A stretch of DNA of 10,816 nucleotides, from UHGV virus genome UHGV-0110205. The stretch is one strand, 5' to 3'. The notes beneath the pieces were generated by a model that did no database searches, was not told the origin of the DNA, and was given only the letters and a program-made list of their open reading frames with translations. Origin of the DNA: a virus. Shown piece by piece: positions 1,934 through 10,816 of the stretch (positions are counted from its first letter, which is position 1; every line of letters starts with the position of its first letter). A program made the position numbers and the translations under genes.

Positions 1934-2212
1934 CGCATTCGTTCAAATTGCGTTTACTTCTTGGCGTTCTGTTCATCCATATCGATATACCATGGGTTGC
2001 TTCCCTTGGGCATGTTTAACGACTGCTCGCGATAGTATCTGATGCGCTCCATGAAATACTCGCGTGAGTGCTCAGGTTGCTCTCATGATACCTGCTCAGT
2101 GATAACAGGTATGTTAAGGCGCTCTCTGTACTCCATGCCTGATGCTGCAAGGTCAACGTTTACCTTGTTCTGTTTTTCTTTCGATTTCTCGGCGATGTTA
2201 TGCCTGACATTG

Positions 2213-2455
2213 TCAACCCGCCTCCTTCTGAACATAACGGTTATAAATCAGTCCCTGAGGGCCATAAGGAAGCGGGATGTGCAACTCCTCTGGTTCAGAA
2301 ACTATCCATTCTCCGGCCATCTCCGCTGGAGAGGTAATGATAAGTTGTTTGCTAATAAAAGGACCACTCCTCTCAACAACAAGCTTACCATCTTCATTAA
2401 TAAAAGCTTGGATGTCAGGTGTGCTTCCACACTTGGTGATGCAGCGTTTGAACAT
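2213..2455 (-). CDS. Hypothetical protein, 80 aa (moron-like cargo gene)
   Basis: ORF MFKRCITKCGSTPDIQAFINEDGKLVVERSG...; GGGAGA 6 nt upstream of ATG 2455. The ORF-track start at 2497 would lie upstream of the predicted -10, so I prefer 2455. Confidence 0.5.
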   Translation of the reverse strand: MFKRCITKCGSTPDIQAFINEDGKLVVERSGPFISKQLIITSPAEMAGEWIVSEPEELHIPLPYGPQGLIYNRYVQKEAG

Positions 2456-2581: not shown

Positions 2582-3253
2582 TCACCCATCTTGCTGCGGT
2601 GCTACTATTGAAAAGTGCTCACACCCTTTAGCCCAAATAGTTTTGATAGTTGTCCAACTGACTGGAACCTTGATTTCGATTCTCCCGCTACAGTCACAAG
2701 TTTCGCAATCATCATCACCAAAGCATTCCGGGCAGCTTATAAACGTAGTTTCTGAAAATTCACCGGATAGCACACCCTTAGCGCCGTTCTCGGCTGTTAG
2801 TCTCTTCGGCACCATGACCCAACCATCCGGAATTACCGGAGAGTTGCCGGGTTCTTTAATGTGCAAGCGAGGCTCACCATCTTTTGGCTCAGGCCACTGG
2901 CGCTCCATGTTGATCTTCAATTTATCTTCCATAGCAGCGGTAATTTCAGCATCGCTGATGCCAGCACGGCGCTGTGAATCCCACAACAGAAACTGCATAT
3001 CAGCCCACTCGCTAAGATCGTCTGGTTCGGCTGCGGCTTCCAGTGCCTCTTTTGAGAGGTGTTTCAGTGGACCAATGGGGCCAACGCAGCCAAATGTGGA
3101 GTCAGACCATTTGGCATGCTCGTGGCGAATCTGTTCGCGTTCCAGTGATGCCAGTGCAATTCGTGCCAGTTCCATTTGTTCGCCACGAGTAAGCCCGTTT
3201 TCAAGCGGATTTTTAATGAATAATTCGATACGTTCTTTGGTAATAGTGGTCAT
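2582..3253 (-). CDS. DUF550 / MazG-like nucleotide pyrophosphohydrolase-domain protein (P22 EaA-like) with Cys-rich C-terminal region
   Basis: 223-aa ORF; AAGGTGA 7 nt upstream of ATG 3253. N-terminal block HEHAKWSDSTFG...GPLKHLSKEALE...DDLSEWAD resembles MazG/DUF550 motifs from memory. C-terminus has CPECFGDDDCETCDCSG. Confidence 0.7.
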   Translation of the reverse strand: MTTITKERIELFIKNPLENGLTRGEQMELARIALASLEREQIRHEHAKWSDSTFGCVGPIGPLKHLSKEALEAAAEPDDLSEWADMQFLLWDSQRRAGISDAEITAAMEDKLKINMERQWPEPKDGEPRLHIKEPGNSPVIPDGWVMVPKRLTAENGAKGVLSGEFSETTFISCPECFGDDDCETCDCSGRIEIKVPVSWTTIKTIWAKGCEHFSIVAPQQDG

Positions 3254-3255
3254 AG

Positions 3256-3447
3256 CTATTTCACCTTAATCTCAACATTTCGCAGCTTTAGCTCTACTGG
3301 CAGGTCTGACTTTCCTGTTAATGCTAATGCGAGATTTTCTGGGGTAATGAGAGCAGTTATTGCTTTCCCCATTGCCAGACGAATAATTATTCGTATTTCG
3401 CGATCGTCACATGCTCCTGGTCGAACGATTGATATTTGTCCGTCCAT
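3256..3447 (-). CDS. Hypothetical small protein, 63 aa
   Basis: AAGGAGA 5 nt upstream of ATG 3447; tightly packed between flanking genes (2-nt gaps), consistent with operon context. Confidence 0.5.
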   Translation of the reverse strand: MDGQISIVRPGACDDREIRIIIRLAMGKAITALITPENLALALTGKSDLPVELKLRNVEIKVK

Positions 3448-3448
3448 C

Positions 3449-4165
3449 TCACTCTCCTTTGATGCGAATGCCAGCGGAGCGGATTGCAGCGATGACTTCA
3501 GAAACTTTGTATGCCATTACCGTTTGGTAATCCTCGTGGAAATCTGTTCGATGAAGCATGCTGCTACGTTCCGGGAGCAGTATTTCCCGCGCTTCCAGTT
3601 CTGCAATGCGCTTCTCTGCGGCTTCCAGCTTCTCGCGCATATCGTCAACGTACTCGACCAGAGAACCGCCAGCAGGAATTTCGCACTCCTCGACCAGTTG
3701 GAAGTAGATATCAGCTGCGGCCCGTGTGTTGCTATGCCTAGCGTCGCCCATCTCACCTTCACGAAGAGCATCGCGTTCGGCGGTAAGATTGGCTATTTTG
3801 CTGTCTTTGCCTTCCAGCTCAACGCGCAGCCTCCCAACCGTAAGCGCAATATCCTCGTTCTCCTGGTCGCGGCGTTTGATGTATTGCTGGTTTCTTTCCC
3901 GTTCATCCAGCAGTGCCAGCACGGTAGCCGGATTGGCTGCAGCGATGAATTCAGCATTGGCCTGCTGTTCCATTTGGAAATCTTCATCGAAACCGCTTTC
4001 AGGATGCGCTCCTTCAATTCTGCAAATGGGAAGATATCCAACAACTTCACGATGAATTAGCGCATCACCAGCATCAAATCTCTCCTCTCCATATTCGAGC
4101 GACCACACACCACACGTTGCTTTCTCTGCCTTTTCACGCAGCGCCTGATAGTTAATTTTGGTCAT
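3449..4165 (-). CDS. Ead/Ea22-like protein
   Basis: 238-aa ORF; N-terminal NYQALREKAEKATCGVWSLEY...AEFIAAANPATVLALLDE matches my recollection of the Ead/Ea22 family signature; central coiled-coil-like acidic region. Upstream stop/start are adjacent. Confidence 0.75.
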   Translation of the reverse strand: MTKINYQALREKAEKATCGVWSLEYGEERFDAGDALIHREVVGYLPICRIEGAHPESGFDEDFQMEQQANAEFIAAANPATVLALLDERERNQQYIKRRDQENEDIALTVGRLRVELEGKDSKIANLTAERDALREGEMGDARHSNTRAAADIYFQLVEECEIPAGGSLVEYVDDMREKLEAAEKRIAELEAREILLPERSSMLHRTDFHEDYQTVMAYKVSEVIAAIRSAGIRIKGE

Positions 4166-4640: not shown

Positions 4641-4934
4641 TCAGTCATTACTGATAGCGCCATAGCGTGAGCGGTAATTACGCAGGCGCGGGTCAATTTC
4701 AGGGAAGTGGGTATATGTGGCTTTGCGGAATGGTCGGATTGATGTCTGGTAAATTCGATCGCGTTCTTCTTTCTCTGCAAGCCATATACAGTGGCGAAAT
4801 TCCTTTTCCTCTTTCGTTTCCTGCGGTAGCGACATTATTCGATCGTAGTTTTTTCTGAATTTATCCAGCACCTCCGATACGGAATTGCCGGAACAGCGGC
4901 GCGCGTCGTCCGCACCATACAGAGGCGCTGGCAT
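4641..4934 (-). CDS. abc2: Abc2-like anti-RecBCD protein (recalled similarity to P22 Abc2)
   Basis: 97-aa [29 protein letters not shown]...; AAGGA 7 nt upstream of ATG 4934. Located downstream of erf/ssb as in P22-type recombination modules. Family assignment is from memory. Confidence 0.6.
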
Positions 4935-6495: not shown

Positions 6496-7464
6496 TTAGT
6501 AGGTTATTTTTGTTGCGAATACTTCGCCTTTTACGATGGCTGTTATGATATTTTTAGCAACATCTTCTGATGCGCCAACCTTGATAAGGTCAGCAAGTAT
6601 TTTGTTATTTACTTCTTTCCGGTGAGCTTTATCCTTTGCTCTACGCTCTTCTTCTTCCTTGATTCTTTTTTCTTCTGCTATTCTGGCTTGCTCTTTTGCT
6701 TCAGCATCGCGACGGATTCGTTCAGCCTCCTCCTGTGCTTTTCTGCGTTCTGCTTCAATTGCTGCCTGCTTTTCTCTTTCAGCTCGTTCTGCTGCCTCTT
6801 TTGCTTCGCGCTGTGCTCGCTGCTCGGCTTCAATGCGTTCACGCTCTGCACGTTCCGCTGCGGCCTTAGCTTCTGCTTCTCGCCTTGCTGCTGCTTCAAT
6901 TTCGTCTTTTGCCTTTGCTTCGGCTTCTGCTCTGGCTTTCTCTTCAGCTTCTCTTTTTAAGCGTTCTTCATGCTCTCGCTTTTCCTGCTCCGCTTTGAGT
7001 CTTGCCTCTTCTCTTTGGCGGTCAAATTCGCGATCCATCAAAATAGCTATTTCATGGTCAGACTCAATTTGCTTTGCGAGAGCTTCAGCTGCTGCCTTAG
7101 CTTCTTCTTCGGCTTTAATCCGCGCCTGTTCTTCCTCATAATCAGTAAGAGGCTGGCGTGCCTTGGCTTTCAGCTCATCAAGGCGATCACGCACTGTCTT
7201 GCGGTTGGCATCAATTAGCTTTGGAATTTCCTTCAGTTCAGCCACAAGGTCTTTGCCAAGACCATCGAGATATGTTTTCGTCTGCGCAACTTTATACGCC
7301 AGAGAAGCGATCTCCTTTCTGCCCTTTGCCGTTGTGATATCAGGCACAAAGGACATAACTTCACGTTCAACCTTTTGAAGGATTTCTTCAATCTGGTCGG
7401 CAGACTGAAATACAGTCATTGCATTTGATTTTTCAATAACAACTAAATCTGTTACTTCACTCAT
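6496..7464 (-). CDS. 322-aa protein with long E/R/A/K-rich predicted alpha-helical (coiled-coil or single-helix) central domain; function unknown
   Basis: GGAGGA 3-4 nt upstream of ATG 7464. Globular N-terminus (~110 aa), ~170-aa low-complexity charged segment (EEARLKAEQEKREHEERLKREAEEKARAEAEAKAK...), short C-terminal domain. Coding strand fixed by operon context. Confidence 0.85.
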   Translation of the reverse strand: MSEVTDLVVIEKSNAMTVFQSADQIEEILQKVEREVMSFVPDITTAKGRKEIASLAYKVAQTKTYLDGLGKDLVAELKEIPKLIDANRKTVRDRLDELKAKARQPLTDYEEEQARIKAEEEAKAAAEALAKQIESDHEIAILMDREFDRQREEARLKAEQEKREHEERLKREAEEKARAEAEAKAKDEIEAAARREAEAKAAAERAERERIEAEQRAQREAKEAAERAEREKQAAIEAERRKAQEEAERIRRDAEAKEQARIAEEKRIKEEEERRAKDKAHRKEVNNKILADLIKVGASEDVAKNIITAIVKGEVFATKITY

Positions 7465-7899: not shown

Positions 7900-8232
7900 T
7901 CAATCGTAATAAGCTGGAATTGATTTTCCGCGTTGCTTCTGGCGGCCTGAACAAGTCACACCAATTTCACTGCGTGGCTTGCTGTACCATGTGCGCTGAT
8001 TCTTGCGCTCAATACGTTGCAGGTTGCTTTCAATCTGTTCGTGGTATTTAGCCAGCACCGTAAGGTCTATCGGATTCAGTGCGCTTTCTACTCGTGATTT
8101 CGGTTTGCGATTCAGCGAGAGAATAGGGCGGTTAACTGGTTTTGCGCTTACCCCAACCAACAGGGGATTTGCTGCTTTCCATTGAGCCTGTTTCTCTGAG
8201 CGACGTTCGCGGCGGCGTGCTTGTGCATCCAT
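7900..8232 (-). CDS. N: Antitermination protein N (lambda N family)
   Basis: 110-aa ORF MDAQARRRERRSEKQAQWKAANPLLVGVSAKPVNRPILSLNRKPKSRVESALNPIDLTVLA... is near-identical to recalled lambda N, including the Arg-rich boxB-binding motif. GGAGA 5 nt upstream of ATG 8232. Confidence 0.95.
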   Translation of the reverse strand: MDAQARRRERRSEKQAQWKAANPLLVGVSAKPVNRPILSLNRKPKSRVESALNPIDLTVLAKYHEQIESNLQRIERKNQRTWYSKPRSEIGVTCSGRQKQRGKSIPAYYD

Positions 8233-10286: not shown

Positions 10287-10816
10287 TGATTACAGGCATA
10301 ACCCTGTACAACATCAGGAGGCATCCAGTATGGGGTATGTCTCTATACACCGCCAGTTTATGGACAGCAGGCTCTATAAGGACTCTCAGGCAGTACATCT
10401 TTGGCTTCACTTAATCCTCAAGGCTAATCACGAATCTACTGTCGTCAATACGGATATCGGTCCGATAACTGTTGATCGCGGTCAGATGATAACTGGACGC
10501 CCGTCGCTGGTCAGAGAAACATTCATCCCCGACAACAAAGTTCGGAGCTTATTACGGACTTTTGAGTCGAAAGGGATGCTTAATATTTGCTCGATGGGGA
10601 AGAAATTTAGCCTGTTTACAATCGTTAAATATGACGATTTTCAGGCAAAAAATTGTCCAACGGTTGTCCAACGGTTGTCCAACGCAAACACCAGTAATGG
10701 CGCGGCTCTCAGCGGAGATTGTCCAACGGTTGTCCAACGGTTGTCCATAAACAATAATATAAATAATATCTCTAATACTGACGTATTAGAGAGTGCCACA
10801 GCAGATAAAAAGTCTG
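10268..10816 (+). CDS. O-like replication initiator, N-terminal part (runs off window end); contains ori iterons
   Basis: Open frame from ATG 10268 (AGGAGG 6 nt upstream) to window end, 183 codons, no stop. Alternative start ATG 10331 also has an SD. Missing from ORF track because it has no stop. Confidence 0.8.
10654..10790 (+). repeat. Replication origin: six 11-bp direct iterons (TTGTCCAACGG) in two triplets plus AT-rich region
   Basis: Iterons at 10654, 10665, 10676, 10720, 10731 and 10742 (last degenerate TTGTCCATAAA), separated by a 33-bp spacer, followed by aaacaataatataaataatatctctaatact. Lambda-ori-like architecture inside the initiator gene. Confidence 0.7.

Follow-up and report, generated by a model that had tools for sequence, protein, structure and literature searches.

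What should be made of a gene in which a nucleotide pyrophosphohydrolase domain and a cluster of cysteines seem to share one polypeptide? The question is raised by positions 2582..3253, on the minus strand, of a stretch of viral DNA of 10,816 nucleotides (UHGV virus genome UHGV-0110205, called here in its full length the window), where a first-pass annotation had read a MazG-like DUF550 domain fused to a cysteine-rich C-terminal module. This observation and the core of its interpretation are supported by our analysis: the gene is a mosaic of the EaA family, made of a leader, a DUF550 domain, a linker and a zinc-finger module. As for its product, we consider it reasonably probable that it is an early mosaic protein, in which an active MazG-like pyrophosphohydrolase of purine ribo- or deoxyribonucleoside triphosphates ((d)NTPs) stands beside an independent, zinc-stabilised and acidic protein-binding module, without any obligatory coupling between the two.

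The gene is complete, as judged from the list of open reading frames (ORFs), from Pfam and from the RefSeq name of near-identical DNA ("DUF550 domain-containing protein"): its 223 codons start with an ATG at 3253 and are closed by a stop codon at 2584-2582. A Shine-Dalgarno sequence, AAGGTGA, can be read 7 nucleotides 5' of the ATG (3261..3267, minus strand), and between it and the start falls the stop codon (3256-3258) of a 63-codon ORF which directly precedes the gene on the same strand and ends 2 nucleotides before the ATG. This tight spacing is typical of the packing of phage operons. In the vicinity of the gene, neither a sigma-70-like promoter nor an intrinsic terminator was found on the minus strand, which fits a co-transcription within the pL operon. 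The protein homologues with 97-99% identity are of equal length and E. coli chromosomes carry the DNA of the gene at 98-99.5% identity; these comparisons indicate a real gene and exclude a chance ORF.

The DUF550 signature announced by the first-pass annotation is confirmed by Pfam. PF04447 (dATP-dGTP_PPHyd, formerly DUF550) matches residues 42-137 (2843..3130, minus strand) above its gathering score (E=7.3e-42, 142 bits against a cut-off of 23) over positions 1-96 of the 97 of the profile, and predicts a MazG-like all-alpha (d)NTP pyrophosphohydrolase. The domain had been placed in the N-terminal half; it lies in fact in the middle of the protein, after a separate leader of 38 residues. Two enzymes of this kind are characterised (PMC12884076, PMC8342488): the DUF550 enzyme of Acinetobacter phage SH-Ab 15497, from which the Pfam name is taken, converts dATP and dGTP to the corresponding monophosphates (dNMPs) and pyrophosphate, while MazZ, from cyanophage S-2L, is specific for (d)GTP and forms a homotetramer with a MazG-HisE fold. 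Our literature search found DUF550 only in papers on Z-genomes and in genome descriptions. With the single sequence, a phmmer search of the PDB reached MazZ at E=0.57 only. A profile made from seven DUF550 sequences (alignment A6, which includes domains of Klebsiella, Mycobacterium, Pseudomonas and Paracoccus phages) matches MazZ (7ODY) with E=1.1e-7 and aligns the catalytic ExxE...ExxD, so that the proposed link with MazG stands as well.

This profile alignment, combined with the roles of the residues given in the paper on MazZ, allows a detailed comparison. The predicted metal-binding motif E69-x-x-E72 ... E82-x-x-D85 (EALEAAAEPDDLSEWAD; 2999..3049, minus strand), read from the translation and from A6, superposes E69, E72, E82 and D85 on E35, E38, E50 and D53 of MazZ, the ligands of its three catalytic ions. 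R118 falls on R83, which is next to the beta-phosphate, K111, N115 and W120 on the partner-chain pocket residues K76, N80 and W85, and D92 on D60, which contacts the 2-amino group (N2) of guanine. In the all-alpha superfamily, Lys, Asn, Arg and Trp residues of the last helix, supplied by the partner chain, serve the pocket and the transition state, and K111, N115, R118 and W120 correspond to this set. The strictly conserved metal ligands of MazZ are therefore all kept in the studied protein, together with several residues of the pocket, and every one of the positions just listed is invariant in A6 (n=7). Hence, from the match to MazZ and from this invariance, we infer that the domain is very probably competent for catalysis, with a preference for purine nucleotides.

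The cysteine string quoted in the first-pass annotation is found at residues 174-190 (CPECFGDDDCETCDCSG; 2684..2734, minus strand), a further cysteine being C211. It is predicted to form a zinc knuckle, with two CxxC motifs of the DnaJ CxxCxGxG type in which C174, C177, C183 and C186 would be the ligands. We aligned 88 copies of the module, with 31-84% identity to the query. These four cysteines are invariant in 88 copies out of 88, as are W200 and K204; P149, L152-T-A-E-N-G-A-K159, G164-E-F166, I203 and I206 are nearly so. C188, on the other hand, is a glycine in 83% of the copies (the second motif of the studied protein reads CETCDCSG) and C211 a valine in 85% (n=88), which leaves four of the six cysteines as features of the family. 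The conservation of the cluster among homologues is thus true for four columns and does not extend to the two others. The first pair departs from CxxC in a few copies, where it is spaced as CxC or Cx4C. The net charge is negative in all 88 copies, with a median of -7 (-6 for the studied one). This acidity argues against binding of nucleic acids and for binding of a protein; a nucleic-acid-binding zinc finger was set aside as the leading idea on this ground.

We modelled the module with AlphaFold2 from the 88-sequence alignment and obtained a predicted local distance difference test score (pLDDT) of 89.4 and a predicted template modelling score (pTM) of 0.70. The model has an ordered extended segment (residues 137-157), followed by a short helix, by a beta-hairpin (167-173/191-197) and by a last helix, and both CxxC motifs lie in the loop joining the strands of the hairpin. 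The last helix (residues 200-216, or H64-80 in the numbering of the module; 2606..2656, minus strand) is amphipathic and bears the invariant W200 and K204.

A structural comparison of this model returned no significant neighbour, and none among the cysteine-rich domains of DnaJ. When the profile of the module (A5) is compared with the sequences of the PDB, the five best matches are all DnaJ-type cysteine-rich domains or anti-TRAP: DNAJA3 (2CTT, E=8.7e-5, with 0.007 for the best stretch), E. coli DnaJ (1EXK, E=1.4e-3), anti-TRAP (3LCZ and 2BX9, E=0.03 and 0.12) and Ydj1 (E=0.12). The alignment with DNAJA3 also takes in the LTAENGAK..GEF segment, paired with ELTFNQAAKGVNKEF of the cysteine-rich region. 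The profile thus suggests a similarity to the DnaJ-type zinc knuckle at the level of the superfamily, of borderline significance, and the metal-binding look ascribed to the cysteine cluster finds a counterpart in these zinc centres. The studied copy does not match PF00684, the best score among the relatives scanned being 13.2 bits against a cut-off of 32.7, and precomputed annotation gives PF00684 in 3 of the 120 relatives shown. The four CxxCxGxG repeats and two zinc centres of DnaJ were not found either, the two CxxC motifs making one possible centre, nor did Pfam detect a J domain with its HPD motif in the studied protein or in the module-bearing relatives. This absence of a J domain shows that the name "molecular chaperone DnaJ", which RefSeq gives to module-only proteins, is a misnomer. 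The literature yielded nothing relevant on CXXCXGXG zinc fingers of phages.

The module, delimited by the envelope of a hidden Markov model, by the translation and by the AlphaFold2 model, covers residues 141-217 (2603..2833, minus strand), and we found no Pfam, NCBIfam or PADLOC family for it; scanned alone against Pfam it gives sub-threshold matches only (DUF7895, GRXCR1-2_C, Anti-TRAP, DnaJ_CXXCXGXG). With residues 137-223 as a query we collected about 250 proteins, mostly of 115-153 amino acids with other N-termini, some of them Ead/Ea22-like and a few named "molecular chaperone DnaJ". A HMMER profile search of 1.84 billion cluster representatives returned 1465 clusters with E<=1e-3, 1044 with E<=1e-10 and 270 with E<=1e-30. 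Among the best 150 of these 1465 clusters (some 1200 weaker ones lie at E between 1e-30 and 1e-3), the proteins have 104-442 amino acids and carry a near-identical module, usually at the C-terminus. The Pfam partners present in the 141 new representatives are DUF551 (10), DUF550 (8), Ead_Ea22 (6), DUF3850/ASCH (1) and Lar (1), the remaining representatives having no Pfam domain.

Serratia, Pseudomonas and Vibrio phages have divergent copies, and these three, taken in turn as queries, led to 193 further relatives; 60 of the 115 new divergent relatives among the matches listed are stand-alone proteins of at most 95 amino acids containing the module only. The stand-alone proteins measure 76-90 amino acids; those of Pseudomonas luteola, of a gammaproteobacterial metagenome-assembled genome and of a metagenomic contig are encoded in prophage early regions, between the recombination genes and the integrase. 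By all these comparisons, residues ~141-217 appear to be an autonomous and portable domain. Three neighbourhoods may be mentioned beside this distribution. In Salmonella phage 118970_sal3 (L003 3001-3582) the same leader is followed by the zinc module without DUF550. In Vibrio phage D93 (L006) a divergent module gene of the stand-alone type (2327-2722) is found downstream of, and two genes away from, one annotated as nucleoside triphosphate pyrophosphohydrolase (890-2002), a second case of the module near such an enzyme. In Paracoccus phage vB_PyeM_Pyei1 (L010 712-870) a protein of 52 amino acids annotated "chaperone protein DnaJ" adjoins, on the opposite strand, an EaA-like DUF550 gene; it may be, to judge by its annotation, another small DnaJ-type zinc protein, adjacent instead of fused.

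How did the two domains come together? The linker GNSPVIPDGW (residues 136-145; 2819..2848, minus strand), located from the translation and from the endpoints of megablast matches, is common to DUF550-only and module-only genes, and the protein P0173 is identical to the studied one through ...GNSPVIPDGWVMVPK and then has another tail. We searched 5426 complete E. coli genomes with megablast: the DNA of the module (window 2585-2845) is present in 193 of them and part of the junction-spanning segment 2700-3000 in 667, while at least 80% of this segment, that is to say the fusion itself, is present in 19. Among the matches listed, those of the DUF550 side end at 2819-2821 and those of the module side at 2848, and the 29 nucleotides in between encode GNSPVIPDGW. 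The positions of these ends point to the shared 29-nucleotide linker as the crossover site. The fusion is also found in Salmonella, Citrobacter and Klebsiella at 70-90% identity. The fusion claimed by the first-pass annotation is therefore real, but the counts given above (19 of 5426 genomes, and DUF550 in 8 of the 141 module-bearing representatives) make it one rare product of module shuffling, ordinary among shuffled prophage proteins, and no dedicated architecture.

The other end of the protein has the same character. The leader (residues 1-38, MTTITKERIELFIK...ARIALASLE; 3140..3253, minus strand), when scanned alone, matches phrog_3323, phrog_10451, phrog_660 and phrog_60; it is common to many otherwise different prophage early proteins and also heads module-only proteins such as P0003. 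For the studied protein, all PHROG matches are of unknown function, the NCBIfam scan gives no match, and a match to PF13935 (Ead/Ea22-like) is absent, the Ea22-like protein being encoded by a separate gene upstream. Residues 1-143 have 62.5% identity with EaA of P22, for which we found no functional study in the literature. Longer relatives have extra modules inserted at the linker or at the ARIALASLE boundary. On a more general level, proteins of the ea region can be described as strings of cassettes in which two boundaries recur, ARIALASLE marking the passage from the leader and GNSPV(I/T)PDGW that to the tail; up to four unrelated modules are inserted between the two, for total lengths of 115-442 amino acids (P0128, P0135, P0154, P0164, P0222 and P0231 are examples); by its sequence boundaries, this pattern looks like systematic module shuffling.

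The window belongs to a P22/lambda-like E. coli prophage, of which it represents the immunity and early-left region. According to the scans of its ORFs with PHROG and Pfam, it contains an integrase (45-1205) and an excisionase (1082-1429), then, up to the studied gene, several small PHROG families of unknown function. Upstream of the gene come the 63-codon ORF and the Ead/Ea22-like gene (3449-4165; PF13935, E=3.5e-29); farther along are encoded the anti-RecBCD protein Abc2 (4641-4934), an SSB-like protein, Erf, an N-like antiterminator (7900-8232) and a CI-like repressor, with cII on the other strand. The studied gene sits between the Ea22-like gene and xis/int in the leftward early operon, and this context makes it an accessory gene of the ea (exo-xis) region. 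A prophage of E. coli SFAD3, which adjoins sbcB, has the same arrangement of genes in RefSeq and DNA 99.5% identical over 1.1 kb. PADLOC-DB has no defence-model match at E<=0.01 for the studied protein and five neighbours. In the translated ORF list of the 10.8-kb window, no PurA-like (PurZ) or HD-domain (DatZ) ORF is evident, so the physiological function must be another than in Z-phages; a Z-genome role, which we had considered, was rejected in view of the ordinary lambdoid early operon.

Three other features of the window deserve a mention. At 1954-2235 (minus strand) a frame resembling the theta subunit of DNA polymerase III (HolE) has an in-frame stop after codon 50, and its SFAD3 ortholog is in RefSeq a pseudogene with an internal stop. 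At 10641-10758, downstream of cII, two clusters placed 66 nucleotides apart, each with three tandem 11-nucleotide repeats TTGTCCAACGG, look like iterons or binding sites for a replication initiator. Finally, 6496-7464 (minus strand), between the N-like gene and the kil/erf region, encodes an extremely charged, Lys/Glu/Ala-rich and coiled-coil-like protein of 322 amino acids, which belongs to no Pfam family and matches only phrog_1376 and phrog_21365, of unknown function.

The picture that we propose is that of an accessory protein built like beads on a string, expressed early from pL of a P22/lambda-like prophage along with the other ea genes. Its DUF550 domain, probably a dimer or a tetramer like MazZ, would cleave (d)NTPs to (d)NMPs and pyrophosphate in the presence of divalent cations, the substrates being most likely purine nucleotides (dGTP, dATP or GTP) by analogy with the two characterised relatives. 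The C-terminal 77 residues would fold on their own, one zinc held by C174, C177, C183 and C186 stapling the tip of the hairpin, and the hairpin packing on the C-terminal helix. Because it is always acidic, the module would most likely bind a protein partner, of the host or of the phage, in the manner of anti-TRAP; a nucleic acid is less likely. Homologous recombination in the 29-nucleotide linker, common to many ea genes, would have produced the fusion, and the two activities need not be coupled, as the distribution data suggest.

Several facts weigh against this picture. The module of ST64B and of 118970_sal3 has lost the first cysteine, so that some copies may be able to do without zinc. In 118970_sal3 the glycine which follows is lost as well (SFPECLADEECESCDGSG); the module stretch shows 74% identity with the same consensus-module query in ST64B sb31, and the 118970_sal3 copy may be a zinc-independent or a decaying variant. 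The AlphaFold2 model of the full-length protein, from a shallow alignment of 71 sequences, is poor, with a pLDDT of 52.7, and was kept out of the fold searches; it predicts helices at 23-54, 68-74, 83-96 and 101-117, where the superfamily has a four-helix bundle that forms dimers or tetramers. The preference for purines is extrapolated from relatives which are at best ~35% identical over the alignable stretch, and the DUF550 enzymes characterised so far come from Z-genome phages, whose PurZ/DatZ pathway is absent from the window. Lastly, in SFAD3, the closest E. coli DNA match, the annotation of the ortholog gives a split gene and a partial pseudogene; this shows that the gene is dispensable in lysogens.

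The same split gene could be taken to mean that we are dealing with a decaying chimera, left in a cryptic prophage and without selected function, all the more as the fusion is rare and the neighbouring theta-like gene has a stop in frame. But the ORF is intact and has a good ribosome-binding site, the catalytic and predicted zinc-ligand positions are all preserved, and versions of the fusion with 70-99% identity persist in four genera; the conservation of the residues argues against decay, which we regard as extremely unlikely. The persistence of the intact fusion, in prophages of E. coli, Salmonella, Citrobacter and Klebsiella, can be read in another way: the zinc module would regulate or oligomerise the pyrophosphohydrolase, through redox or zinc sensing or through a higher-order assembly, and the fusion would be a dedicated architecture. 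DnaJ-type zinc proteins such as anti-TRAP do oligomerise, and so do enzymes of the MazZ type. A coupled enzyme of this kind is nevertheless rather unlikely in our opinion, as the DUF550 side of the junction occurs in 667 E. coli genomes when the fusion occurs in only 19, as the module is far more common alone or with unrelated partners than with DUF550, and as the breakpoints of homology fall exactly at the shared linker.

Two further explanations bear on the target of the protein instead of its architecture. It could be an enzyme of counter-defence or host takeover, the DUF550 domain depleting an alarmone or an immune messenger (guanosine tetra- or pentaphosphate, (p)ppGpp, or a non-canonical (d)NTP signal such as deoxyinosine triphosphate, dITP) and the zinc module either targeting it to a component of host immunity or of the stress response, or inhibiting this component independently. 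Small acidic phage proteins are often inhibitors. The gene is near abc2 in an early accessory region, the modules are shuffled extensively as an arms race would predict, dITP is an immune messenger in the Kongming system, and the MazG-like phage enzyme Atd1 depletes (p)ppGpp and confers protection from the toxicity of TIR-STING (bioRxiv 10.1101/2022.06.09.495361). Atd1 is however of the canonical MazG type and is not reported to belong to DUF550, the factor known to counter Kongming is a dNMP monophosphatase and no pyrophosphohydrolase, the literature searched contains no match which ties DUF550 or EaA to defence, and none for a MazG-like enzyme with prophage and anti-defense, and the residues of the pocket, D92 among them, suit ordinary purine (d)NTPs as substrates. 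This leaves counter-defence with a small share of our belief. It may also be imagined that the module mimics DnaJ, recruiting DnaK or competing with DnaJ in order to tune the use of chaperones in early development: lambdoid phages depend on DnaK and DnaJ, and the profile aligns both the CxxCxGxG motifs and the segment which precedes them with the cysteine-rich region of DNAJA3. The borderline E-values of this match, the single zinc centre where DnaJ has two, the lack of a J domain, the sub-threshold PF00684 scores and the failure to find a structural match to DnaJ cysteine-rich domains make such mimicry very unlikely.

Little changes for the gene as a whole, which is a recognisable accessory gene of the DUF550/EaA type with near-identical proteins (97-99%) already in RefSeq. 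Judging from the residue match to MazZ, the DUF550 proteins of lambdoid phages probably act as pyrophosphohydrolases of purine (d)NTPs, though these phages make no Z-DNA. The module itself has no name; self-contained and strongly conserved, it is carried, alone or in many combinations, by temperate phages throughout the Gammaproteobacteria in their early regions, at times under the wrong name of "DnaJ". A name for it and the identification of its partner would throw light on an element which keeps returning in the little-understood exo-xis/ea region. One can go farther and see in it the founding example of a widespread family of temperate-phage early proteins, acidic, derived from DnaJ and holding a single zinc, which would be portable inhibitors or adaptors directed at a conserved host target (chaperone, stress pathway or immunity) and which, joined to DUF550, would deliver the hydrolysis of nucleotides or alarmones to this target as a two-pronged counter-defence factor; we think this extension quite unlikely.

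It remains to compare the protein with the systems already known. The SH-Ab 15497 enzyme, by its Pfam family, and MazZ, by the profile match, are the closest models of the DUF550 domain: the ExxE...ExxD ligands, the beta-phosphate arginine and the K/N/W residues of the pocket are identical, and the expected chemistry, from (d)NTP to (d)NMP and pyrophosphate, would by analogy be alike. These enzymes work with PurZ and DatZ in Z-clusters, where dGMP is fed to PurZ and dATP removed, whereas the studied prophage has ordinary lambdoid early genes; moreover, the SH-Ab 15497 enzyme is fused to DUF5664 and the studied protein to the zinc-finger module. EaA of P22 and the DUF550 alleles of 198 amino acids of E. 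coli occupy the same place in the early-left ea region. The common allele P0173 is one of them, with its first 150 residues identical to those of the studied protein (97-99% identity over 70% of the query covered); they differ by the tails which follow PDGWVMVPK (for example ELTPEMMRAVQ...) and have no cysteine module. Atd1 resembles the studied gene as a phage all-alpha enzyme of the NTP pyrophosphohydrolase type found among accessory or anti-defence genes, but it has the canonical MazG catalytic domain, comes from a Pectobacterium phage and is without the zinc module; an alarmone activity of the studied protein would be conjectural, with Atd1 as its precedent.

For the module, Ea8.5 of lambda (PDB 2M7A) offers the example of a small zinc-binding protein, of unknown function, which belongs as well to the exo-xis/ea region of lambdoid phages. 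DnaJ itself, after which RefSeq and the JGI have named some copies ("molecular chaperone DnaJ", "DnaJ-class molecular chaperone"), has two centres made of four motifs and a J domain, when the module has one centre made of two motifs, no J domain, and scores below the Pfam thresholds; the module has in addition a conserved segment at its N-terminus and, at its C-terminus, a helix bearing an invariant tryptophan and an invariant lysine. The cysteine-rich domain of DnaJ (PF00684; 1EXK, 2CTT) and anti-TRAP (PF15777; 2BX9, 3LCZ) nevertheless share with it motifs of the CxxCxGxG type at the tip of a hairpin. Anti-TRAP is, like the module in many of its occurrences, able to exist as a small stand-alone protein, and being a small DnaJ-derived zinc protein which inhibits another protein, it provides the best functional analogy.

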